A stretch of DNA of 63,502 bases, counting the filler, from Licmophora abbreviata (taxonomy: Eukaryota), in NCBI GenBank assembly GCA_900291995.1. It is 10 parts of 10 records of this genome, joined end to end, with 100 filler letters (N's around TTAATTAATTAA, not from the genome) between each part and the next. Parts side by side here need not be neighbours in the genome. Positions count along the whole stretch, not along the records: positions 1 to 5,665 come from OLMU01005183.1; 9 more parts are not named here. One strand, written 5' to 3'. Each line of letters opens with the position of its first letter. Position 1 is the first letter of the stretch. A program made the translations under genes and the position numbers. A model generated the notes under the pieces. That model saw only the letters and a list, made by a program, of their open reading frames with translations, did no database searches and had not been told where the DNA came from. Of the stretch, positions 1,831-62,129 are shown piece by piece.

Positions 1831-3387
1831 ATGACGACGACGACGACGACAACGATGAATGGCGGCGGCGATGCTGTGGCCCCTTTGGGTCCAGTCGGCC
1901 TCCATTTCGATGCATTCGACATCTTCTTTCATCAAACGCAGAGCTTTCTGACAGCGCGTGAGCTCGGAGTGTTCTCAACGTGCTCCAACCACGTTCGCAC
2001 GCTCATCCGAGATCGGGCCGTCTGGAAAAAGGTCTGGCGGCATGCTTCCAAAGCGTGCAAGAAGTTTCAGACAGAACCACTGGCGTCTGCCGTTCTGATA
2101 CATCGCTACGTGGGCGAGTGCTGGGGCAAGGAGTCGGGGCTACTGGAGTGCTTCCAGAATCCCGACGAGCGCATCCTCGACCGGGTCGGATACGAGCATG
2201 CTGTACGGTGCCTGGTATCGCAACATTGCTTCTACTGCGGACGCATAGCGGGCCATGCGAACCCTCTCACCATGACGCGGACGTGTCATGACTGCTACAA
2301 GCTTGCTTTGGAAGGCCTGGTGGCTTCCAAGTTCATGGCGAAGGAGGCATTTTGTGTTTCCGACGATGATCTGGAGGGGGTGCCGATGGCGTCGCTCGAA
2401 TGCAAACATCGGCTTGTCTTGATTTCCGATGTGATGGCTATTTCGCTCGTCAAATGGGGTGGAGCAGACGGTCTGGAAGCGGAGATTATTTCCATGACAC
2501 AGAGAGAAGTGGATCGCTTCGAGAAGAGTCAAAGTACATCCACGCCCCGGAGTAGGAAGAGGAAGCGTCCCCGCATGGAAGAGCTTTCGCGTCGCCCCGC
2601 CGACGACCCATCATTGATCGGCTTCTCTTTCATGCCTCTTCCCATTGGCACGACTCATGACGTCGTCGACTGTGGTCATGACTTGAAGATGACATTCTCT
2701 GTCAAGTGCAACTTCTGCAGCGTCTGTGGTGGACTCATGACAGTCATGCGTCACGAACGTCTGGAACACAACATTTGCTCCCTGCTCGGGGAGGCTATTC
2801 CTGAATCCCATCCTCCGAGAGATCTCACGTCACTCGCCCTGTTTCATCCTCCTCGGGAACTTATCGATTTTCTGGAGGAGGCTGAAACGCAGTATGGATA
2901 TATCTGTAGACGCCCTCCGACGACCGGCTACCGATATGCGGCTGTGGGTCGCGAATCCACCAGCGATGAGGACACTGCCGAATGCATGACGCTTCGTTTT
3001 GACGAAGTTGTCATTTCTGTCGACTACGAATCTTGTGCGTTTGCAGGTTGTGATGATACGGGATACTTTACCGTATGGTTTCAGCTTGCTCCCAACGCGG
3101 TTCCTTCTGAGGCGTTGTGCATTGGAATTGGCGAGAATGTGGGCAAGCTCTCTGAAGGCAGCACTCGTACCTTTGGTACTCTTTTGGAGTCACTAGGACT
3201 TGTACAGACGACGCCATCGCACCTTTTGGCGGCGCTCATTATGAAGGCTGGGTCTTTGTCTGACTTTTTCGAATACGTCCTTGACGACACGAATCATGCA
3301 TACAAGGATTCCACGGATCGAGGCATGCTGCCAGTCCTCCATGGCGCCATGAAAATTCTCAAGGGGGTACGGAATTCTTCCTACTGA
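1831..3387 (+). CDS. F-box-like + C4 Zn finger/XPA C-terminal-like + C2H2 finger protein
   Basis: 518-aa ORF. FLTARELGVFSTCSNHVR..VWK is F-box-like; CFYC..CHDC followed by KFMAKEAFCVSDDDL..LISDV..KWGG..GLEAE is XPA-like; basic RKRKRPR; CNFC..HERLEH. Confidence 0.6.
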   Translation: MTTTTTTTMNGGGDAVAPLGPVGLHFDAFDIFFHQTQSFLTARELGVFSTCSNHVRTLIRDRAVWKKVWRHASKACKKFQTEPLASAVLIHRYVGECWGKESGLLECFQNPDERILDRVGYEHAVRCLVSQHCFYCGRIAGHANPLTMTRTCHDCYKLALEGLVASKFMAKEAFCVSDDDLEGVPMASLECKHRLVLISDVMAISLVKWGGADGLEAEIISMTQREVDRFEKSQSTSTPRSRKRKRPRMEELSRRPADDPSLIGFSFMPLPIGTTHDVVDCGHDLKMTFSVKCNFCSVCGGLMTVMRHERLEHNICSLLGEAIPESHPPRDLTSLALFHPPRELIDFLEEAETQYGYICRRPPTTGYRYAAVGRESTSDEDTAECMTLRFDEVVISVDYESCAFAGCDDTGYFTVWFQLAPNAVPSEALCIGIGENVGKLSEGSTRTFGTLLESLGLVQTTPSHLLAALIMKAGSLSDFFEYVLDDTNHAYKDSTDRGMLPVLHGAMKILKGVRNSSY

Positions 3388-3542: not shown

Positions 3543-5302
3543 CTACGAAAAGGACAATGTCTCCTTTGCCGTGAGGTGGCCATAATCTCCGAACGTGAAG
3601 CAACCGCACCGTCCAGTCGGATAGACGTGGATCTCTGTGATGGAGCAATGCGCAATCGAGAATCGGGACCATCCCTCGGGCGGGAATTGCATGGCACGGC
3701 AGAGGAAGTAGCGAATCAAGTTGCCATGGCCGACGATAACTTCAAAGTCATCACCGCCATCGTCGGCCCACCCGGCAGAGGGGAAGACACGATGGAAATA
3801 CTTGCGGTAGGCTTCTTCGGCGCGCTCAGCTCTGGGTTTGGGGTTGCCGTAGCCGGGAAGGCACGGGATCGCAGCGGCCGGACTGTACAATGTAAAGCGG
3901 AAGGCGCAAGCGAATTGGCGTGATGGATAAAAGACAAAGGCGGGAGATTACGCAAGAACGATATAGATCACGCAGTGACTTACATTGTCTCATTCAGCAA
4001 ACTGTCGGGTTCGGCCATCGGCACACTCGGAAGATGCTTTTGAATGATCTGAGCACTCTCCTTGGAGCGCGGCAGGCAACTCGTACGAATCACAGAGATG
4101 GGACGACGCTTGTGCAGTTTAGCCAAACGTTTCCCGACCAGTTCGGCTTGGCGGCGTCCCTTCCCTGTAAGGATGCGGTCCTCCGGATCCGTCTCGTGGG
4201 TCTCATACTGACCATGGCGAATCAAGAGGACGCGGCGTGTGGGACCATACTTGGACTCGTCGTACAGGTGCTCCATATCGTCCCAGTTGGTATCCCACAA
4301 GGGATAAGGAAGTAGAGGCTTGAAGTGATTCACTGTGGGTTCCAGGAGCGGCGCCGCGGCGGTGCTAGTTCGACAACGACCTGCTGCCATGTGTGAGAGG
4401 CGAATCTCTTCAACGGACATTGTCTGCTCGTACTTGGGGGTAGCAGTGATGGAATGAAAGTTCACCGCGTTGCCATTGGCGTCTGGGAGTACCGCCACGG
4501 CGTCATCGAACTCGTTTCCTGTCGATGAAAAGGGTGCGGCCGTTGGGAAGACCGCAGTGACCATGCCTTCATTTGTCCCAGTCGGCAGCGACTTGGAAGA
4601 TCGAGGCGGAACGACTACCCAGGATGGCACCAAAGAAGAGCTTGCTTTGAAACTAATCGCTGTCGAGTCGGAGCCAAACGTGAAAGACGATGGGGGTCGA
4701 GGTGTCGTACCAAACATCGCTTCAGCAGGATCGGTCGCCCCATTTGTCGTAGACGACGACGAAAAGGAGGGCGGTGGAAACACAACACTGGTGGTACCAG
4801 CGTGAGAATCCTCGAACGTAGGGCAATGCGAGGGAGGAGTCGTTGGTCCTTGACGCCATGGCGATGACGGAGCTGCGTCAAACATTCTGGCACGTGCAGG
4901 CTGTGCAGGCACTCCAAGCTCGGGTTGTCCAAAGGATTTGCCAGTACAAGTAGAAGACGCAGCTTTTCCAAAGACGATACGGGTAGAAGTAGTGTCTGTT
5001 GCGGGTGGTGCATAAAGGTCGGACGATGGCGGCGATGTTGCATCAACAAAGCCGCCAAAGGAAGCACACGGTGATGGAGCAACACTGCCACCCGGTTGGA
5101 AGGGGACAGTAGAAGTAGACTCCACGACGCGGTCGCCGGTACGATTCGGGTGGCATCCGACCTTTGGATTCGTAGTCCAGGGAAGAGTCACCGACGTTGT
5201 CGTGCTGGCAGGCTGCCGCTCCTGGTTCCAGCAGAACGAGCCGGCTGTGACAGCGGGAGGACTGTTTTCGTTGTTGTCGCTGTGGTCGTTCATCATCTTC
5301 AC
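3543..5302 (-). CDS. PGAM5-like histidine phosphatase with N-terminal FG-rich/GLEBS-like extension (2 exons, intron 3883-3983)
   Basis: WDTNWD, LLIRHGQY, LT..GRRQA, VGHGNLIRYFLCRAMQFPPEGW, HCSIT and GDYGHL match PGAM5. A GTAAGT...TACAG intron joins ORFs 3980-5302 and 3543-3890 in frame (LLNETI-PAAAIP). Confidence 0.88.
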
Positions 5303-5665
5303 CTCCAGTACTGTATTGAAGCGATAGTCGTGTGAGAAGAGTGGATTGTGTCAAGTGTGTTGTCGTTGAGAGGAGGTTTGAATATTTTCGAAACCGCCGT
5401 CGTCCATGATGACGATTTCAAAATGTCAAAATTCCCCCCATTGGCTTTCTGCTTGTGCGACTTCTCTATCAAAAGCGTGTTTCATGTACACCAAGAATGA
5501 GCTTCACAAACGGCAAATCGCCTTGTCGCAACGAATCAATCCATTGTGTGAGTGTGTCCTCTGCAGGAGCATGCATGCATGCATCCACTGCATCGCCATC
5601 CTCCTCGCATAGTAGTGTAGCTAGAGAGCGAGAGTCACCCGCCGGCGATTTCCATGTCATTAAAG

Positions 5666-5765
5666 NNNNNNNNNNNNNNNNNNNNNNNNNNNNNNNNNNN
5701 NNNNNNNNNTTAATTAATTAANNNNNNNNNNNNNNNNNNNNNNNNNNNNNNNNNNNNNNNNNNNN
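5666..5765. other. Assembly spacer (N44-TTAATTAATTAA-N44). Same spacers at 25374-25473, 27804-27903, 31308-31407, 32961-33060, 38203-38302, 42574-42673, 60871-60970, 62030-62129
   Basis: Identical 100-bp N blocks with a six-frame stop linker. Several are flanked by duplicated overlapping contig ends. Confidence 0.97.
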
Positions 5766-6150: not shown

Positions 6151-7749
6151 ATGATCGAACTGAACTCCAAGGCCCAGCCGTCGCAGTCGCTTCCAAAGGA
6201 TTCCATGCCGTCCGATGAAGAGGCAGCGGCTGCTCCTTATCATGCGTGGAAGGACGAAGACGACGAAATAGGACGAGTAGCAAAAACTCAACAAGAGCCT
6301 TTTTGGAAGAACATTGCTACTCTTTCAGGTCATCGACGCAAGTGGTTGGTAACGAGCATGTGGATGTCCATGGCTGCAGTTCTAGGAACGCTTTTACGCA
6401 TTGTTCTGGCGCAGCTCTTTGGGGAAGAGTGTGCGAATCCAGGAACCGTCGGTTGGTTGGCAGCCAGTAGTCCACTTTGTGTGACCAAGGCTGGAGAAAG
6501 TACGCTGGAAGGAGGCATTGTCTTTGCGGATTTGCCCAGTAATTTGCTCGGATCTTTCATCATGGGCATGATGCAGAATGGCGCTGCCTTGGAACTTCCC
6601 ATTGACATTCCAGTCGTCTGGTTGTCTCGATCCAGCAACTTTCAGTATTGGGATATCCTCCATCTCGCCATACGCACTGGCTTTTGCGGTTCGCTCACGA
6701 CGTTTTCCTCGTGGAATTCCGAAATGGTCGTCTTGGTCTTTGGAACGGGCACTACGAATCTCCACAGCGATGTCTTTCGAGCGGCCTTTGGCTATATGAT
6801 TGGTATGGAAACGGCGCTCGGCTCCTTTGTCTTGGGACAACGTGTCGCCTCGTGGATTCATCGCGCGCGGAATCCTGACTTGGCCACGGAGATGGATGCC
6901 ATATACGAACGAAGACAGGAAGGAGTCTACATTCACCCGGAATTACCAGAACTCGAACGAAGGTTCCTTCCAGATCTACGTATGGATGTAGAAAACACGG
7001 ATGGACTCGAGTATTTGGAACGATGGCGTGAGTCGACCTATGATGTGCGGCGTAAGGGAAATGGACTGCTTCCCAACTTGGTGGAGATTGAGAGGACTAC
7101 ATTGATCAAGGGATCGGACATGCTGTCGTCGGAGTCGGAGAGTGTAGCACGGAATGCTGGGTGGGACATCGATGCTTTGCTCGAATGGATTGCACGTCAT
7201 CCACGCGACTCCAAGAACCGTACTCCTGACGAAATACAACATCCACTCTTTCTTTCATTAGAAATCACCTCGCTGATCTTCCTCGCCACAGTCACGTTGC
7301 TCCTGTTGGGACTCGTTCTTGTCAACGACCCTTCTGCCTACTCGGTCACATATCGTACCATGATTTACGGTGCGTGCTTTGCACCCTTCGGTGCCTTGTT
7401 GCGCTGGCACCTCTCGGGCTGGAACGGCAAGTTCGAAAATGCGTTGTGGCATTGGCTGCCGGTCGGTACGCTCAGTGCCAATGTCCTGGGCAGTGTCCTA
7501 TCCATTGCCATGGTGGCTGCGGAGTTGCGAATGATCAGTGGCAACGGCTTCTGGGGAGTCGGTACAGTGCGTGCCATCTAGATTGGCTTTTGCGGCTGCC
7601 TTACCACCGTGAGTACCTTTGTCAGTGAAGTGAGCAAGTTTATGAAGATCTCGCCACAACAATACCGCGCGTACATTTACATACTGGTGTCGTTGGGTAC
7701 AAGTTGCGTTCTGTCCATGATTGTGTATGGCGCCATTGTTCTGATATGA
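6151..7749 (+). CDS. FEX: FEX/Fluc (CrcB) two-domain fluoride channel with in-frame TAG at 7579-7581
   Basis: Domain 1: GTLLR..NLLGSFIMG..RTGFCGSLTTFSSW. Domain 2: GALLRW..GTLSANVLGS..AI*IGFCGCLTTVSTFVSE, continuing in frame to TGA at 7749. Confidence 0.88.
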
Positions 7750-7873: not shown

Positions 7874-9127
7874 CTAGAGCTTGGGAGGGCTGGCGCATCG
7901 ACTGCTCCTCCCAACTGGAAGCCCGGTACAAGTAATGCACTCGTCGCCCTCACACTGCACTTGCACTGTCGCATGCTGGATGCCATACTTTTGGCACACA
8001 CAGTAGATATCTTGCAGCACCTGTTGGGCCGTCCGTTTCGTGGTAGCTTCTGTAGCCATGACGTGAACACTGAGCGTCGGAATGCCATGCGAAATACTCC
8101 AAACGTGAAGATCGTGCACTTGTGTGACACCCCGAATTTCTTCCATTTCGCGATGAATGTCAGTCCAAGATAAATGCGGGGGCACTTCCTCCAACAGAAC
8201 GCTAATAGACGAACGCAGCACTCCCAACGTAGAGTAAAAGACCAAGGCACAGAAAAGGAGTGTGCAGAGCGGATCCACAACGACCCACGTCGGCTGCCAC
8301 CAGATGATCAATCCAGCAATCAAAACGGCCACGGACTGTGCCAGATCACCCAGAACATGGAGATAGGCAGCGTGCAAGTTGATGTTGCGAGTAGGCTTTT
8401 GTTTGGGCGGACGAAGCTCGTCCGTGTGAGTCACGGCAGCATAGTCACCGTGACGTGCATGATTCTCTTCGTCGTCGTTGTGATGATGATCGTCGTCATG
8501 CCCGTGCGAGTGGTCATGATCATGGTCATGGTCATGTCCACCGGGCAAATGAACATGATGTTCTCCCAGTACAAAGGCCAGTACGATGTTCACAATGACA
8601 CCAATCGTTGCGATTCCACTCATTAGAGGCCCATCGACAGGCTCCTTTGGAGGGTCTACAAGACGCCTCACTGCTTCTACTGCCAGTCCGATGGAAACCA
8701 GTGCCAATGACACCATACTAAATAAGGCAGCCAAACTTTCCATGCGCTTCAACCCAAACGTGTGCATTTCGGTAGACGGCAGCGACGCCAAGTGCGCCGC
8801 CGCGATGGCCACGACGAAGGCTGCCAGGTCGGCGAGAAGATGAGCGGCATCACTGAGAATCGCCAAGGATCCAGCTAGCCAGCCACCAATGACTTCGACT
8901 AGCAGAAATGTGGCACATAAACAAGAGGCTGTCTTGAGTCTTCGTAACACCATGGCCTGGCGAGTGACTTCATCGTCGTTTGCAGCAGTACCGGTAGGAT
9001 GTCCCTGGCCGGTAAGAAGTGGTCGAGCCTCGTCAGAAGGAGCGACCTCAGGAGCCGCGTGCTCGTGACTATGACTGTGTGAGGCTTCTTCTGTGCACTG
9101 GTGGTCGTGGCTGTGGCTGTGGGACAT
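7874..9127 (-). CDS. Cation diffusion facilitator Zn transporter (ZnT/MTP1-like)
   Basis: SLAILSDAAHLLAD, His-rich loop and N-terminus, NLHAAYLHVLGD, HDLHVWSI, HATVQ. Confidence 0.95.
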   Translation of the reverse strand: MSHSHSHDHQCTEEASHSHSHEHAAPEVAPSDEARPLLTGQGHPTGTAANDDEVTRQAMVLRRLKTASCLCATFLLVEVIGGWLAGSLAILSDAAHLLADLAAFVVAIAAAHLASLPSTEMHTFGLKRMESLAALFSMVSLALVSIGLAVEAVRRLVDPPKEPVDGPLMSGIATIGVIVNIVLAFVLGEHHVHLPGGHDHDHDHDHSHGHDDDHHHNDDEENHARHGDYAAVTHTDELRPPKQKPTRNINLHAAYLHVLGDLAQSVAVLIAGLIIWWQPTWVVVDPLCTLLFCALVFYSTLGVLRSSISVLLEEVPPHLSWTDIHREMEEIRGVTQVHDLHVWSISHGIPTLSVHVMATEATTKRTAQQVLQDIYCVCQKYGIQHATVQVQCEGDECITCTGLPVGRSSRCASPPKL

Positions 9128-9940
9128 GGTAACGGAGTCTTGGGCGGTGCTGCGTCAAACTCCCATGGTGAACTCAGATGTCGCAAGTTTTGAAGCTTTG
9201 AAATTTGGAACTCTCACAAGCAAGTTATGGAATCTGGAACTTCGAAATTTATCAATGGAATGGAATCCTTGCGGGCCACTCATTTCCCTTACCGTTTACT
9301 AGCTTTCAACATATACCAACGAAATGCGTATGTACAAGATAATACAAATTGTACGATAACTCTTGATCTGCTCATCTCAGCTTCATTGAATGCGTGTGGC
9401 AGGTGAGGCAACCGTGACGGGAGGCATTTTTTTCACCATGACGAAGGATGGAGCGACCAAAAAGCATTGGATAGAGTCTTCCGAGTACAAAGGACAGAGC
9501 AGGATCGAAGAAAAGGAGAGAAAAGCCTTCGAAACGGACGAACGGCGACACAGAATACACGCCATGGTGGGAACTTTCTCGTGTAGGAAAACTGTGCGGT
9601 ACGGTGCTCTACGGGGGACTCATAACCCATATTGGATACCGTCGTTTCCTCGGACCGAATACCGAGTGCACCACCGCGGCGGTTCCGTGTCATTCGTTCG
9701 TGGGTCTCTCTTCTGCCGTTTCCTTTGACTCTGTGTATTCGAAGGCTCGTCGGTGGCTGAGTCGTGGCACGTATCGGCGTTTGTCCTATCTGTCGGTGAC
9801 ACTTTGGATCCATCGATCGCGACCCATCAGAATTTTTTTTGCCAAAGCATTCTGTACTCACTCTTTTCGTTACCCTTCCCTCCCTCGGCGTTCTCAGTCA
9901 CTCTCTACTGTTGGATTTTTCTATTTTATACTACTTCATC

Positions 9941-25281: not shown

Positions 25282-25698
25282 CTTGCTGTAGAGCGAACGA
25301 ATTCAAGGAGACATATACTGTCAACGGAAGAGTGATGGAAGTGCACACAGTTTGCGAACCGAGCCAATCTTGANNNNNNNNNNNNNNNNNNNNNNNNNNN
25401 NNNNNNNNNNNNNNNNNTTAATTAATTAANNNNNNNNNNNNNNNNNNNNNNNNNNNNNNNNNNNNNNNNNNNNATCCAGGCGCGTCATCGCGTGTCATCG
25501 TGATATCTTAGACTCCTCCGACTCAAATGTATTCTTTCGAACGAGTCAACAAGCTCGACTCACTCGACTCAGATCGACTCGTCGGACTCGGAAACAAGTA
25601 CTCACTCACTCACTCCCCGGCCTTACTCACACTCCTTCGAGTCAGTCAAACGGAGGCGTACTTCGTACCCTACCCTTGATATCATACTTTAACTCTAG

Positions 25699-27319: not shown

Positions 27320-28280
27320 ATGAGACACGGCAGAGCCAAGGCGGCAAGACGAACCCTTCAATTTTTTCGGTTGCAACATGGAATTCGACCCCCCTACCAT
27401 GTCATCCTGGACGGCACCTTCTTGCTGCAAGTCATTCAACAGAAGGTTCCACTTAAGGAACGACTGGATCGAGTATTGCAGCATGAGCGAATAATCTTGT
27501 ACGTCTGTCGAAGTTCCTTATCGGAGTTGCAGTCTCTTTCGGAACAACCGGGTCTCGTCAATGCTAATTCAGACATGAAGGAGCGGTTGAGACAGGCGCG
27601 ACAGTGGGGACTCGATGAGTGCGATGTCATACTGGAAAACAAGGATATACCAACAACAACACAAACCGCAGCAGCAGCAGCACATGATGACGATTTTGGA
27701 ACGGCTGGTCGAGATATTTGGAACCTCGTGTCGAATGGTGACAAGCTCCAACACTACTTGGTGGCTACTCAGGAGGAGCAATTGTTGGACGCCCTGCGTC
27801 GGTNNNNNNNNNNNNNNNNNNNNNNNNNNNNNNNNNNNNNNNNNNNNTTAATTAATTAANNNNNNNNNNNNNNNNNNNNNNNNNNNNNNNNNNNNNNNNN
27901 NNNAATTGTTGGACGCCCTGCGTCGGTTAGGGACGGCTCCATTGTTGCGATTGAGTCGGGGTGTGCTGTTGTTGGAGCAGCCGAGCAAAGCATCGCAACA
28001 CAAAGCGTCGACTCAAGAATATCGCAAGTGGGGTGGAAGCTCGAATGCCAGTGAGAAGGAAAAAGCGCTTGTCAAGACTGTAAAGGAACTGGGAAGACAG
28101 GATCTTCCCAAGCCACACTACGAACAGTCTCATCGTCGTGTCAAGTCGAAAGCGAAGGGACCGAATCCTTTGAGCTGTAAAAAGAGGCGCAGCGCTGACG
28201 AGACGGACGTCAGTGCGAAAAAGACGAGTCGCAAGCGACGACGAAAGCACAAAGCCTCCGAGCAAGCCTCTGAATCCTAG
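27320..28280 (+). CDS. UTP23: rRNA-processing PIN-domain protein UTP23 (split by spacer with 24-bp overlap)
   Basis: PPYHVILDGTF, YLVATQ, LLLEQPS, KAKGPNPLSCKK. aattgttggacgccctgcgtcggt is duplicated on both sides of the gap. Confidence 0.9.
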
Positions 28281-31307: not shown

Positions 31308-31407
31308 NNNNNNNNNNNNNNNNNNNNNNNNNNNNNNNNNNNNNNNNNNNNTTAATTAATTAANNNNNNNNNNNNNNNNNNNNNNNNNNNNNNNNNNNNN
31401 NNNNNNN

Positions 31408-31866: not shown

Positions 31867-33800
31867 GATAAGGAGCCTGAAGAAGTTCATCCATGTGAGT
31901 TGTGAAACATTGGGGCTCTTCTCACTGACTGAGAAAGGAAGTACGAACGGTAGAGCTTACCAGGTATCCGAATTTCGAATGAGTGATAGGACTAGTTCAT
32001 ACCAATATCTTCGTAACTACGATGTAAAAGTGCACTCCTCGTAGCCTACTGATAAAGTATATCAATGATAAGCTCGAGACTACGATGACGGTCTAACTTC
32101 TTCAATAGATGTACTGTAGGCGACCCTGTGATCAGAGCTCTACTAGAAAGTAGCTAACGTCATCGTTAGGCTTCTAGGCGTTGAAAGGATACGATGGCCG
32201 GCTTCTACTGACGCGGATAGGGATCCCGCATGGTAGATGGAGACTATGGCCGCGGACAGCGAACTGTACCCGAACCTCCTCGCTCTAGTCTAGAGAGAGT
32301 ACGAGTGCCTATACTACGTCTGGTTTCAGAAGCTACGACAGTAGACGATGTTGCTGAACAAGCGGGGCTGGTCCTCAAGGAGACTGTAATCAGATGAATC
32401 ATTCAATCAATCAAGCGCAGTCCGAGCGTGACCCTTCTTTCTCTTTGTGACGTGGAAGAGCCGTGCTTGCGTCACAGAAAGGCCATTGTGACATCCTCCG
32501 CCCGCCCGCCGACAACAAAAACGAAAAAGACGCGAGAGAAGATCGCAGACAGTCTATGATACAGATACGGTGTAGACTACATTGGATGATCATGCAAGTC
32601 GCGTGTACTTCCCTTGGATCGTTCTTGCCGTCATGTCTCGCAAGGCTCGTGAAGATCAATCTGCGTGGAAGACTGCGTCCTGCTACGCCGTCGTGGGAGA
32701 CTATGGACCCTTCAAGTTTCGTGGCTCGGCTCCGGTCGAGCAGGGGGTGATGTTGATTCTGGCCGCTTTGCCCCAACAAGGAAGCGACCCGACTCGCCGA
32801 CACCCTTTGTATTCCCAAGCCGCACAGTATCAGCAGCTACTCTTGCGTCCACAGCAGAGGTCACACGACGAGACAAAGACTCTCTTGGTGGTCGACGTGA
32901 GGTCCCTGTTTGAATCGAATGAGGAGTACCAGCTAGCTCTTGAGCATTGATAAGGAGCTTNNNNNNNNNNNNNNNNNNNNNNNNNNNNNNNNNNNNNNNN
33001 NNNNTTAATTAATTAANNNNNNNNNNNNNNNNNNNNNNNNNNNNNNNNNNNNNNNNNNNNATTCAAGTGCTTTCCTAGTATCGATAGGTATCTCTCCCGA
33101 GTCCCGTCGGAGCAAGCCAGACGAGATGTCTGAGAAGGGGAACCGTGTTAAAGTACGTACCGTCACATCGTACCATGTCTCGATATACACCCGTAGATGT
33201 GGGTGGTCTTACTAGTTTTGGAGGCTACGGAACAGGAGACTATCATACCGTGGTCTGGACGGTGTTGCTGAACCGGTGGGCAATCTAGAGATGTTTGTAA
33301 CCCCTTAACTTTCCCGGTCGCTGGGAGTTTGTTGGGCTGGACACTTCACTTTTGTCAACGCGCGTGCCAGTAGAACAAGTGTATTGTCGTGAATTTAAAG
33401 TTAAACATGTCTGCATATAGTTTTGTTCATGCTATGGTTCGTGTTTTTGTGACCGCATTGAACATGTGAACATGCTAGATCGGAATTTCTTCGCCCATCC
33501 ACGTCATTCCATAATTGAATATCGTATGTAGAGTTCTACACGGATAGTACTGCAGATAAGTCACAATTCAGCAGAGCGCTGGCGACTGGCGAGCTGATGT
33601 CAGAATCGAGTCAGTGCACTCCCTAGCAGCACAAAAGGAATAGCAGTTGAGCCGAGCCAGCAGTCGCCGTTGATCGCCAATTGGCTTTTTTGTCAAGGAT
33701 TCTTCCGACGATCTGTCATCGATGATGTGCCGAAAGGACAGAAGAAGACACGATTCCCTTGTGCATACAGCCGTCTTTTAGAAAGAGTGGGAGAGTAGAC

Positions 33801-37960: not shown

Positions 37961-38498
37961 TCACTGTCGTGGGCGCACTGAGGTTGGTAGCGGGTACAAA
38001 TCAAGAATCATGGGTCGTGCGATCTCGCAGAGAGCTTTCGGTGGTGACATTGGATAGACCTCATCACGCCTTCCTAGACATGCCTTGGCATTCATGAGAA
38101 GAGCATTGCTGCGGGACACGGTGTGATTCGTCCGGAACCACGACTCAAAAGCTGACAATGTACCGGTAGATGCCGTCGGCTTAAGAGATAGCCTTCACTG
38201 ATNNNNNNNNNNNNNNNNNNNNNNNNNNNNNNNNNNNNNNNNNNNNTTAATTAATTAANNNNNNNNNNNNNNNNNNNNNNNNNNNNNNNNNNNNNNNNNN
38301 NNGATGCCGTCGCATTCAGAGATAGCCTTCACTGATCCTGCCGTTGGCATGACCAGTACGTCGTGGACTTGGAACTTGAACAAGGTCTCGACTCCTGGCC
38401 CTTCTCCTTGTTCCATGTTGTAACTCAGGCTTCCGCTGCGCTCCAACGCGTTGCGATGTCTTGGTAACGAAGGGAATGTCAGGGTACGACATCACCAT
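37961..38498 (-). pseudogene. Possible small gene reconstructed across a gap with two frameshifts; function unknown
   Basis: Three short overlapping ORFs join into one ~130-aa chain (MSYPDIPF..LERSG..FKFQVHDV..CDGIYRYIVSFESWFRTN..) if single bases near 38455 and 38148 are removed. Speculative. Confidence 0.3.
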
Positions 38499-41800: not shown

Positions 41801-43781
41801 GATTTTCGCGTCGACACACTGCTTCTACCAATCATGCTGGTCTTGGGCTTTTCTGGTCTGGCGTTCACGGTTCTGGATGTGTTGTTGCTGAAGGCGGACA
41901 ACGTGGTAGGGCTTTTCCGCGTGACAGGAATCACAGAATGGAACACGTATCTTGGAATCATGTTCTACAAGTGCGCAACTACATTCTTCCCGTTCTTCTT
42001 CTTGGTAATTATTCTGGGATTTGCGTTGCAGTCGGTAATCATGGGAAACGGCGGCCGATGGCTTGGTACAATCCTTGTCATGCTTGCGTACGCGTACTCA
42101 ACTTCGGCGGTCGGTCTTCTGCTTGGGAAGAAGTTCATCAAGTCAGACTTCAAGAGTGCTGCGAATTGGTTCCCAGGGGTGTACATGACTTTCGTGTCGT
42201 TGCCTTATATGGCATGGAATATAGCTCTTCAGTCGGCTGAAGGTGCGGAAGATGCGTTGATGATCGTCGGGGATATTCTCTGTATCCTGCCACCTGTGGC
42301 ATTTCAACGGGGAATCGGTGCTATCATTGCGGTGTCTACTGAGGCTGACGATTCAGAGTTGACATGGAGTACCGTCTGGAGTTGGGAGAGCCGCGTTTGG
42401 TTCACTGTGATCATTATGCTTGCTGTGGGAACCGCAGAGTGGACCTACATTTACCGTCTTACCACCATGCGCCCCCCGAAGACGATGCTGACCGACGACG
42501 AAAAGGAGGCGGCCGCTCCCGGAGATCGGAATGTGATGGCATCTGATGTGCCAGGGTCGGATCGAAGAGGAATNNNNNNNNNNNNNNNNNNNNNNNNNNN
42601 NNNNNNNNNNNNNNNNNTTAATTAATTAANNNNNNNNNNNNNNNNNNNNNNNNNNNNNNNNNNNNNNNNNNNNATCTGATGTGCCAGGGTCGGATCGAAG
42701 AGGAATGGACGATAGTGGGATCAATGCACGTGATCTCGTGAAACTTTTTCGAATCATTCCACCACGGGGCTCCCGAAACAAAAAGAAAAGGATACTCAAG
42801 TCAGCCGTCAAGGGAGTCAGCTTCAGTGTGAAGAAGAATCAAATTCTTTCGCTTGTCGGTCCAAATGGGAGTGGCAAAACAGTGTCAATGGGCATGCTTG
42901 CCGGCGAGCACACACCTGACCATGGGGAGATTGCTCTTGCAGGAGAGACACTCACTTCGCAAGACAAGAGTGTGCGACATTTGTACCATGATGGTCACGT
43001 TTCCTTCTGTCCCCAGTTTGATGCCTTGTTTGAACGCAAAACGGTGGTACAACACCTTCGTTTCTACGCCACCGTGCGAGGTCTGGACTGGAAGGAAGAG
43101 GCTACTCAGGAACATATCAACTCGATCGTTCGGTTGCTCGGTCTCGAAAAGCACAAGAACAAATTGTCGACGGATCTTTCCGGGGGATACAAGCGTCGCC
43201 TGTCGCTGGGTGTTGCTATGATTGGTACTCCGTTATGCATGATGGTTGATGAATGCACAACAGGAATCGATGCACATGGTCGCCACCTGATCTGGAAGGT
43301 ACTCAAGCCGCGTTCACGCAACGGATTCGACTTGCCGGCCATTCTCCTTTCCACTCACTATATGGATGAAGCATCGCACCTTGGAGACCGAATCGGTATT
43401 CTGATTGATGGCGAACTCGTAGCCGATGGCTCGTTAGCATCACTCCAGGCGGCTTATTGTCGATCTTACTTTGTGGAAATTGCCCTCCAGCCCGAGGCCG
43501 CCGAGGACACCCAGGCCGCAGTGTTGGAGCTATTCGAGGAGAAAGGAATGCCAGCCGATATCTACGAATCCCTTCCCTATCACTTCAAGCTCCAGGTTCC
43601 ATTTCAGGAGTCGACAGGAAACCATTTGGCACAACTGGCATCTATTTTTGAGGTGGTCGAAGCGCACCGTGAGGAGCTCCGAATCAAGTTCTACTCGGTC
43701 GCCCAAATGAACCTTGAGCAGATCTTTATTGATCTGTCGAGGCGCCAGTTTGAAGCGGATGAGTACTCCAGAGGTGTGTAG
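38806..43781 (+). CDS. ABCA: Full-size ABCA-subfamily transporter (TMD-NBD-TMD-NBD) with +1 insertion at 40708; spans gap 42574-42673
   Basis: Walker A GHNGSGKTT and GPNGSGKT. YSGGMKR[t]KVCIALALLGDPEVVFLDEP. LTTHFLEEAD, GSTLFLK, LSGGYKRRL, STHYMDEA, LEQIF. 33-bp duplicated overlap across the gap. Confidence 0.93.
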
Positions 43782-59708: not shown

Positions 59709-61059
59709 TCATTCTTCTTCCATGTCCACTCCTTCACCATCCGCTCGCGAGGCGCCTTCCATGGTACTCTCATCCGCTAGCTCAATCACACGTTGGCACT
59801 TCGACTGAAGCACTCTGAGCGCCTCCGCCACAAGCACGGCGGGCTTCATCATTCCAACGCTCTCTACGGAGAAAATGAAGTGATTGGGCAAGCGACTCAT
59901 CCGGATCGCCGATGCAAGCTCTGGACTACGCATGTAGTTGCGAGACATGGTGCAAGCATAGGGATTAGCCACTCGTGCTTTTACCCGTGTTCCCTTTGGG
60001 TCTACCGAGGAGTCGGTTTGTACCAGCACAAAGACACCAGGCTCGTAGACGTGCACAAGTTCTTCTGCGAGCTCGTCGTATACCGGCTCTACCAGCTCAA
60101 CGTGCGGCATCAGGCGGTAGCATGCAGTGGCCACAGGTGAATACTTCGCGTGGTCGCTACCTGTCCCTCGATGAGCGTGGGCTTCCAGTTCAATCTCCTG
60201 ACCAGGTCGCAGCTTTGCCAACAGAATATCGTCGTGCACAGGTCGAATCCCTTCTGGAAAGCGATCTTCCTGTTCGCCTTGAGGAACCCATTTTAGTTCC
60301 CGGCTGTAGACGTGCTTAGTATATGGCCTATCGGGAGTTTCAATGGCCTCCCTATGATGGGCTGCAGCCGCTGCTGCGACGGCTTCATCCAGATCAGGAT
60401 TCACCACAACAGAATCTTCCTGAGACACCGGTGAGTCGGGGGCCAAGCCTTCTGTCGGCAGTCCATCGCTGCTACTACATGATACTTTCAATCGAAAGAC
60501 AAGCGTATTACGATCGGTCGGGTCGTCTTCTTTCTCAATCTCGTCAAACTTGCGGAAATCGACATTCAAGGGGATCAACCCCAGTCGATGAGCCAAGACT
60601 TCATCGTGGATGATCGATGTGTTGTTCCACATGTACACATGTTCAATAGCCATAGTGGGAACGTCCCCCAGCAGAATTCGACGAAGTGCATTGGCGAACG
60701 ATACATCGATTCCTTTCATTTCAAAGACAAGCTCGTTCTCAGAAGGGCGGTCGAGCACCTTGATTCGAAAATCGGTTCGAAACCTCTCGAGAAACTCTTC
60801 ACCATCTTTTGGTGTCAGTAGCTCCCCTGGAATATGCTGAAATTCTAAACCACTTTCCTTGACGTTGTAGNNNNNNNNNNNNNNNNNNNNNNNNNNNNNN
60901 NNNNNNNNNNNNNNTTAATTAATTAANNNNNNNNNNNNNNNNNNNNNNNNNNNNNNNNNNNNNNNNNNNNATATGCTGAAATTCTAAACCACTTTCCTTG
61001 ACGTTGTAGACTCCCCCAGTCGCCGATCCAAGAGGCGTAGACTCTGCAGGAGCCACCAT
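59709..61059 (-). CDS. RPC40: RNA polymerase I/III shared subunit RPAC1/RPC40 (start lies beyond the gap; 39-bp overlap)
   Basis: ANALRRILL..VPTMAIE, NNTSIIHDEVLAHRLGLIP, LAKLRPGQEI, HAKYSPVATA.YRL, HFIFSVESVG. Merging the overlap extends the frame to MVAPAEST at 61059. Confidence 0.95.
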
Positions 61060-62029: not shown

Positions 62030-62129
62030 NNNNNNNNNNNNNNNNNNNNNNNNNNNNNNNNNNNNNNNNNNNNTTAATTAATTAANNNNNNNNNNNNNNN
62101 NNNNNNNNNNNNNNNNNNNNNNNNNNNNN

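Follow-up and report, generated by a model that had tools for sequence, protein, structure and literature searches.

Where is a PGAM5-type phosphatase sent when its membrane anchor is replaced by a disordered extension and a motif that resembles the Rae1-binding GLEBS motif of Nup98? This question is raised by a gene on the minus strand of a 63,502-nucleotide stretch of Licmophora abbreviata DNA (NCBI GenBank assembly GCA_900291995.1; length including filler, hereafter the window). Animal PGAM5 is a mitochondrial Ser/Thr/His protein phosphatase of branch 1 of the histidine phosphatase superfamily and carries an N-terminal mitochondrial transmembrane (TM) anchor. GLEBS motifs are, to our knowledge, found in a handful of proteins, namely Nup98/Nup116, Bub1, BubR1/Mad3 and BuGZ. 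Through them a scaffold or a kinase acquires a WD40 propeller, which is either Rae1 or Bub3. Judged by its sequence, the protein encoded in the window is a soluble, anchor-less histidine phosphatase of the PGAM5 branch. The joining of a PGAM5 that lacks its anchor to a Nup98-type GLEBS-like motif, from which we infer the function of the protein, is a new domain architecture; PGAM5 and GLEBS are each already known, and it is their combination that is new. In the reading we favor, to which we assign a probability of about 0.42, this PGAM5 paralog would be addressed to Rae1/Gle2 by means of the motif. The architecture suggests that the enzyme is directed to nuclear pores or to the mRNA-export machinery.

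The gene consists of two exons with a coding sequence of 550 codons within 3543–5296 (Table 1), in agreement with the span of 3543–5302 given in a preliminary description of the locus. An ATG-initiated open reading frame (ORF) of 438 amino acids extends over 3980..5296 and ends three codons past a canonical splice donor (...ACA AT/GTAAGT), the last base of exon 1 being 3984. The remainder of the PGAM5-like domain is held by a second frame (3947–3543), which is entered via the acceptor TTGTACAG at 3883. With 3984 joined to 3882 the junction codon becomes ATT (Ile), and removal of the intron restores the PGAM5 alignment across the joined frames. The orthologous protein P0004 described below stops (..LNETL) at the same point at which exon 1 ends. 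Toward the 5' end the frame of exon 1 is open from stop to stop up to 5350; an in-frame stop codon is located at 5351–5353, and Met1 (5296) is therefore the earliest possible start in exon 1. A sequencing run of presumed RNA type yielded one 339-letter contig on 3517–3837, which lies in exon 2 and the 3' flank and reaches neither the 5' end nor the intron; two further runs gave no contig here. The translations of the two exons were analyzed separately (P0001, residues 1–437; P0002, 112 residues). All features listed in the preliminary description, that is the FG motifs, the GLEBS-like stretch, WDTNWD and RHG, were located at the positions named there, the last three in exon 1.

The assignment of the C-terminal part to the PGAM5-type phosphatases, also made in that description, was confirmed by family, structure and motif comparisons. 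Pfam His_Phos_1 was matched above its cut-off of 21.7 in both exons, with 37.2 bits in exon 1 (residues 356–428) and 32.2 bits in exon 2. The closest structures in the PDB are those of human PGAM5 (5muf, 3mxo, 6cni) and the Plasmodium-type entry 3eoz, and exon 2 alone aligns with PGAM5 3mxo_A at E 2.7e-18. The RHG motif, the second catalytic His and, just upstream of the domain, a WDxNWD motif are shared with PGAM5, and alignment A3 shows W334, W338 and D339 to be conserved or invariant. WDxNWD is the motif that mediates PGAM5 multimerization. With all three elements in place, the phosphatase domain is complete and the enzyme appears catalytically intact.

The previously noted absence of the TM anchor could be substantiated on the level of hydropathy. 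Upstream of WDTNWD the hydropathy scan revealed no TM-like segment, with a maximum 19-residue Kyte–Doolittle mean of 1.03 compared to at least 1.5 in 10 of the 15 relatives examined; the value for P0004 is 0.47. Unlike PGAM5, the window protein carries, in place of the N-terminal anchor, a predicted-disordered extension of about 290 residues and the GLEBS-like motif. With P0004 it forms a small clade of its own, apart from the diatom-type PGAM5 proteins with their ..HHGFNW ends and hydrophobic N-termini.

Evidence for the nature of the motif was obtained from a comparison with all proteins of known structure. A profile of two sequences (A2, residues 276–318 of the window protein and residues 1–33 of P0004) was searched against 177,635 distinct PDB sequences. 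At E ≤ 10 eight matches were found, and seven of these are Nup98 GLEBS chains. The top four are the isolated GLEBS peptides from Rae1 complexes (3mmy_B, 7byf_B, 4owr_B and 7vpg_B; E 0.0028–0.0038, about 20 bits). For the best of them, 3mmy_B with E 0.0028, the expectation corrected for five PDB searches is about 0.01. The eighth match is an unrelated PHD finger protein (E 1.5). The resemblance to Nup98 GLEBS had been pointed out in the preliminary description; the profile search retrieved it blind among all PDB sequences.

The 27 aligned residues correspond to Nup98 187–212 and lie inside the minimal RAE1-binding region 181–224, with E296/E297 placed on Nup98 E201/E202. According to passages of PMC2133102, NUP98 181–224 is sufficient for co-immunoprecipitation of RAE1, the segment 150–186 fails to bind, and RAE1 binding depends on a predicted helix at 187–212. 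Excerpts of PMC3783196 describe conserved salt bridges of Nup98 E201/E202 to Rae1 R216/R172, and the equivalent residues of Nup116, E154/E155, as required for Gle2 binding. In the AlphaFold2 model of exon 1 a short helix at residues 295–302 is the sole secondary structure within residues 1–330. On the level of sequence the motif is statistically similar to the Rae1-binding core of Nup98 GLEBS, the EE doublet included. It differs from Nup98 in the N-terminal arm of the hairpin, which is unmatched, and in what follows the motif, a phosphatase here and further FG repeats plus the autoproteolytic domain in Nup98. Among the 32 ORFs of the window that were scanned, no WD40 gene was seen.

To what extent the motif is shared by relatives was assessed with an exhaustive phmmer search of 1.84 billion representatives, which returned 508 proteins at E ≤ 0.001. 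The top match, P0004, is a protein of 174 amino acids on a 1570-bp metagenome contig of the Joint Genome Institute (JGI) and the sole member of its cluster. It starts with MTQEYEMSPEELRLLDMAAGRYRT, after which WNENWD and then the phosphatase domain follow; the corresponding stretch of the window protein is ..TPKYEQTMSVEEIRLSHMAAGRCRT.., and both share YE..MS.EE[LI]RL..MAAGR.RT. A maximum-likelihood tree built from 78 domain segments places the two proteins as sisters, with an ultrafast bootstrap of 99 and a support of 88 in the SH-like approximate likelihood ratio test (SH-aLRT). The core [NSQ].EE[ILMVF]x[LIVMFA] occurs in 2 of the 182 proteins collected, exactly the window protein and P0004, and at 4 of 127,000 positions in the six-frame translation of the window. 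Among the best 150 of the 508 phmmer matches, none other than P0004 contains the motif. A search with region 270–437 gave a single match, P0154, which is devoid of the motif, and of the 30 matches to profile A1 (lengths 90–305) solely P0004 carries it. When the whole of exon 1 was used at near lengths, one match appeared among the 8000 candidates listed, a PGAM5-like protein of Thalassiosira exigua that is matched in the phosphatase part only. Viral and prokaryotic sequences were scanned with the motif profile as well; the two hits, L005 and L006 (a Streptomyces contig), were discarded as chance matches to the MAAGRC word only.

The motif is conserved in P0004, the one ortholog found to carry it, and the called protein shows no FG extension in frame. 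That this protein starts at the motif argues for conservation of the motif rather than of the FG stretch.

Further PGAM5 relatives were found by a pattern scan of metagenomes (253 matches, four loci kept). An anchored diatom-type PGAM5 paralog occurs on two of the contigs, L001 (4270–5031 and 5523–5723) and L002 (66–1712). It possesses a hydrophobic or basic N-terminus, an exon end ..LNEGR and the C-terminus ..HHGFNW or similar, and is clearly distinct from the form in the window, which ends ..ETLSFS. The GLEBS-like motif was not found in L001 or L002. The other two loci, L003 (72–1271) and L004 (162–1484), proved to be Arp2-like actin-related genes that were matched only by the word WDDMEHLY/WDDMQHLY after WDTNWD, a coincidence and not a sign of kinship. 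Another relative, the predicted protein P0005 (501 amino acids), comprises two PGAM5 units in tandem, both of which have a hydrophobic segment and a WNSNWD of their own; this may represent a tandem duplication read as one gene.

The N-terminus had been described as S/T/P-rich over about 320 residues, and the composition bears this out: the first 320 residues contain 45 S, 40 P, 39 T and 34 A, S/T/P together amounting to 39%. As the best stretch never starts before residue 285 in the best 150 of the 508 phmmer matches, the extension is considered an orphan. The ESM Atlas provided nothing usable for residues 262–326 or 1–310. AlphaFold2 was run on exon 1 only, with a 50-row alignment that is informative just for the domain and, via P0004, for the motif; the predicted local distance difference test (pLDDT) remained below 50, and no secondary structure was predicted through about residue 290. 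With regard to coding potential, 292 codons are open upstream of the motif, for which P is about 7e-5 at the window-wide stop frequency of 0.032. The codon score is +0.089 in frame in comparison to −0.18 and −0.17 off frame.

Within this extension five FG dipeptides are observed where 1.2 are expected (P 0.004, 20,000 composition-preserving shuffles). The FG density is 1.8 per 100 residues, and GLFG does not occur. Residues 1–279 contain 7.5% D+E and 5.0% R+K, in total 12.5% charged residues. Pfam Nucleoporin_FG reaches 10.9 bits against a cut-off of 32.2 (E 0.91), and no further nucleoporin family, the Nup98 autoproteolytic domain included, is present among the Pfam matches of the protein. 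In comparison, the excerpted text of PMC4283134 reports for 666 Nup98 FG domains a median of 9 FG per 100 residues, with D+E at 0–0.5% and R+K at 0.1–2.3%. The window protein is similar to such a domain in being disordered and S/T/P/A/G-rich and in presenting FG in SxFG, xFG and FxFG-like contexts above chance, and it is inside a domain of this kind that Nup98 embeds its GLEBS. It differs by a five-fold lower FG density, more charge, the missing GLFG and the Pfam score below the cut-off. The term "Nup98-like FG domain" was rejected on these grounds, and judged by sequence the front part is a disordered region with a few FG-type motifs. Of the Nup98-like FG/GLEBS region proposed earlier, the five FG motifs and the GLEBS resemblance found in the PDB profile search remain, and the FG domain does not.

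If the favored reading holds, the motif would fold onto the top face of the native Rae1/Gle2 WD40 propeller in the manner of Nup98 GLEBS, and its two glutamates would pair with two Rae1 arginines. The phosphatase, probably an oligomer held together by WDxNWD, would then be tethered to complexes that contain Rae1, either at nuclear pores or on messenger ribonucleoprotein particles (mRNPs) undergoing export. In the preliminary description three destinations had been proposed: the nuclear pore, mRNA export and the spindle checkpoint. Alternatively, the protein might be a competitor of Nup98 in binding Rae1. The few FG dipeptides may contribute a weak attraction to transport receptors or to the FG phase; they do not make up a barrier-type FG domain. 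More tentatively, an evolutionary scenario can be put forward: a diatom-like alga may have taken over from Nup98 the module that binds Rae1, sparse FG motifs plus GLEBS, and joined it to a PGAM5 paralog that had lost its mitochondrial anchor. Such a fusion would yield a Ser/Thr/His phosphatase dedicated to docking on Rae1, located at nuclear pores or on mRNPs undergoing export, or else a competitor of Nup98 that bears a phosphatase.

The enzyme would be the first phosphatase with a GLEBS and the counterpart of Bub1 and BubR1, the kinases that carry one, adding an opposing enzyme activity to the GLEBS logic. It would also show that a family of mitochondrial signaling phosphatases can be re-addressed by a swapped N-terminal targeting module, and it would offer a testable way to study how phosphorylation regulates mRNA export or the working of the pore in a little-studied algal lineage. 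Full-text searches of one literature library found no paper mentioning PGAM5 together with GLEBS; PGAM5, Rae1 and the nuclear pore are mentioned together in one unrelated review.

Several observations weigh against recruitment to Rae1. The motif is present in one ortholog only, and the called protein of this ortholog begins right at the motif and shows no in-frame FG extension. The GLEBS signal of about 20 bits comes from a two-sequence profile, and the single motif sequences of the window protein or of P0004 match nothing in the PDB at E ≤ 10. Of the GLEBS hairpin with its roughly 57 residues, just the C-terminal arm is aligned (Nup98 187–212), the N-terminal arm is not. This arm may be dispensable, because according to the passages of PMC2133102 cited above NUP98 181–224 sufficed and 150–186 alone did not bind RAE1. 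In addition, the FG region falls outside the range of Nup98 FG domains in every quantity compared, and the codon signal is ambiguous over residues 51–150. The Bub3-type GLEBS pattern of ELM, in the form given in excerpts of PMC11917139, is incompletely matched, with two mismatches in the window protein and one in P0004.

The same shortness of the similarity, 27 residues that become visible only with the two-sequence profile, speaks for a reading in which the motif would be a lineage-specific conserved element of an anchor-less PGAM5 subfamily with another role, its likeness to GLEBS being convergent or fortuitous. It could then serve as a regulatory or oligomerization helix beside WDxNWD or as a docking site for an unrelated partner, and the extension could be a disordered spacer or a phospho-regulated tail. 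The unmatched N-terminal arm, the lack of any homologs found for the extension and the short distance of about 30 residues that separates the motif from WDxNWD in the window protein fit this explanation. Against it stands the unbiased search of all PDB sequences, in which one functional peptide makes up seven of the eight matches. Both residues that are essential for Rae1 binding in the excerpts of PMC3783196 are aligned, and the positions conserved between the orthologs are those shared with Nup98. We consider such a subfamily element unlikely, albeit the most serious competitor of recruitment to Rae1.

Quite improbable is a gene model in which the extension lies outside the main protein. Translation would start further downstream, for instance at Met293 or Met303 (MAAGR...), giving a short soluble or organelle-targeted PGAM5, and the upstream frame would be a leader or a minor isoform. 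Internal Met codons are indeed available at residues 138, 194, 245, 293 and 303, MAAGR begins with Met in both orthologs, and the called protein of P0004 begins only 16 residues before this Met; the ambiguous codon signal over residues 51–150 points in the same direction. Against a downstream start stand the 292-codon open frame with its P of about 7e-5, the overall positive codon score in frame and the enrichment of FG dipeptides in the frame of the extension. Conservation at the protein level between the orthologs moreover extends upstream of the internal Met303, where YE, MS, EE and RL are retained.

Also quite improbable is a GLEBS of the Bub3 type, the kind present in Bub1, BubR1/Mad3 and BuGZ, by which the phosphatase would be recruited to kinetochores or the spindle checkpoint instead of to Rae1. 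The PDB profile search gave no Bub1, Mad3 or BubR1 peptide and the full LIG_GLEBS_BUB3_1 pattern of ELM is found in neither protein, the match being confined to the core from −2 to +3. The likeness to these motifs is nevertheless real: EE is preceded by S-x and followed by hydrophobic-x-hydrophobic, and the motif is located in a disordered region of a signaling enzyme, a kinase in the case of Bub1 and BubR1. The core S.EE[IL]RL fits the conserved center of LIG_GLEBS_BUB3_1 as reproduced in excerpts of PMC11917139, and P0004 departs from the full pattern at one position. According to PMC3061984, the propellers of Bub3 and Rae1 are related, and an EE doublet is read by each of them.

Table 1. 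Coordinates of the PGAM5-type gene and of its sequence features in the window.
Feature	Position	Strand	Remarks
Exon 1	3984..5296	minus	ATG 5296–5294 to donor; residues 1–437 and two bases of codon 438 (translation P0001)
Intron	3883..3983	minus	101 nt, GTAAGT...ACAG
Exon 2	3543..3882	minus	Coding 3882–3546, stop TAG 3545–3543; C-terminal half of phosphatase (P0002, 112 residues)
Orphan N-terminal extension	4460..5296	minus	Residues 1–279; S/T/P/A-rich, predicted disordered, no TM-like segment
Five-FG span	4670..5062	minus	SFGG to (F)TFGS
SFGG	5051–5062	minus	Residues 79–82
VFGK	4964–4975	minus	Residues 108–111
SFGQ	4925–4936	minus	Residues 121–124
MFGT	4706–4717	minus	Residues 194–197
FTFG / (F)TFGS	4670–4681 for (F)TFGS	minus	FTFG, residues 205–208
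GLEBS-like stretch of the preliminary description, FHSITATPKYEQTMSVEEIRL	4397–4459	minus	Residues 280–300
GLEBS-like motif	4376..4456	minus	Residues 281–307, HSITATPKYEQTMSVEEIRLSHMAAGR; aligns to Nup98 residues 187–212
EE doublet	4406..4411	minus	Residues 296–297; aligned with Nup98 E201/E202
WDTNWD (PGAM5 WDxNWD motif)	4280..4297	minus	Residues 334–339; aligned to WDPNWD of 5muf_A
RHG catalytic motif	4211..4219	minus	Residues 360–362; aligns to RHS of human PGAM5
Second catalytic His (GHGN)	3720–3731	minus	Exon 2; aligned to CHAN

The window contains nine joints of 100 letters each (5666–5765, 25374–25473, 27804–27903, 31308–31407, 32961–33060, 38203–38302, 42574–42673, 60871–60970 and 62030–62129). 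Every joint is composed of 44 N, TTAATTAATTAA and another 44 N, which constitutes a six-frame-stop linker. The window thus consists of artificially joined contigs, and gene order across the joints is not evidence of synteny. The 5' flank of the PGAM5 gene comprises only about 370 bases before the first joint.

On the other side, a convergent ORF of 518 amino acids (1831–3387, plus strand) starts with MTTTTTTTMNGGG and ends 155 bases from the stop codon of the PGAM5 gene; no Pfam family was matched by it at E ≤ 1e-4. Ion-transport genes are situated around the PGAM5 gene. An inward-rectifier K+ channel-like gene (IRK, IRK_C) occupies 106–1605 on the minus strand. Nearby are a two-domain CrcB/fluoride-exporter-like gene at 6151–7581 on the plus strand and a cation-efflux (CDF) transporter gene at 7877–9154 on the minus strand.

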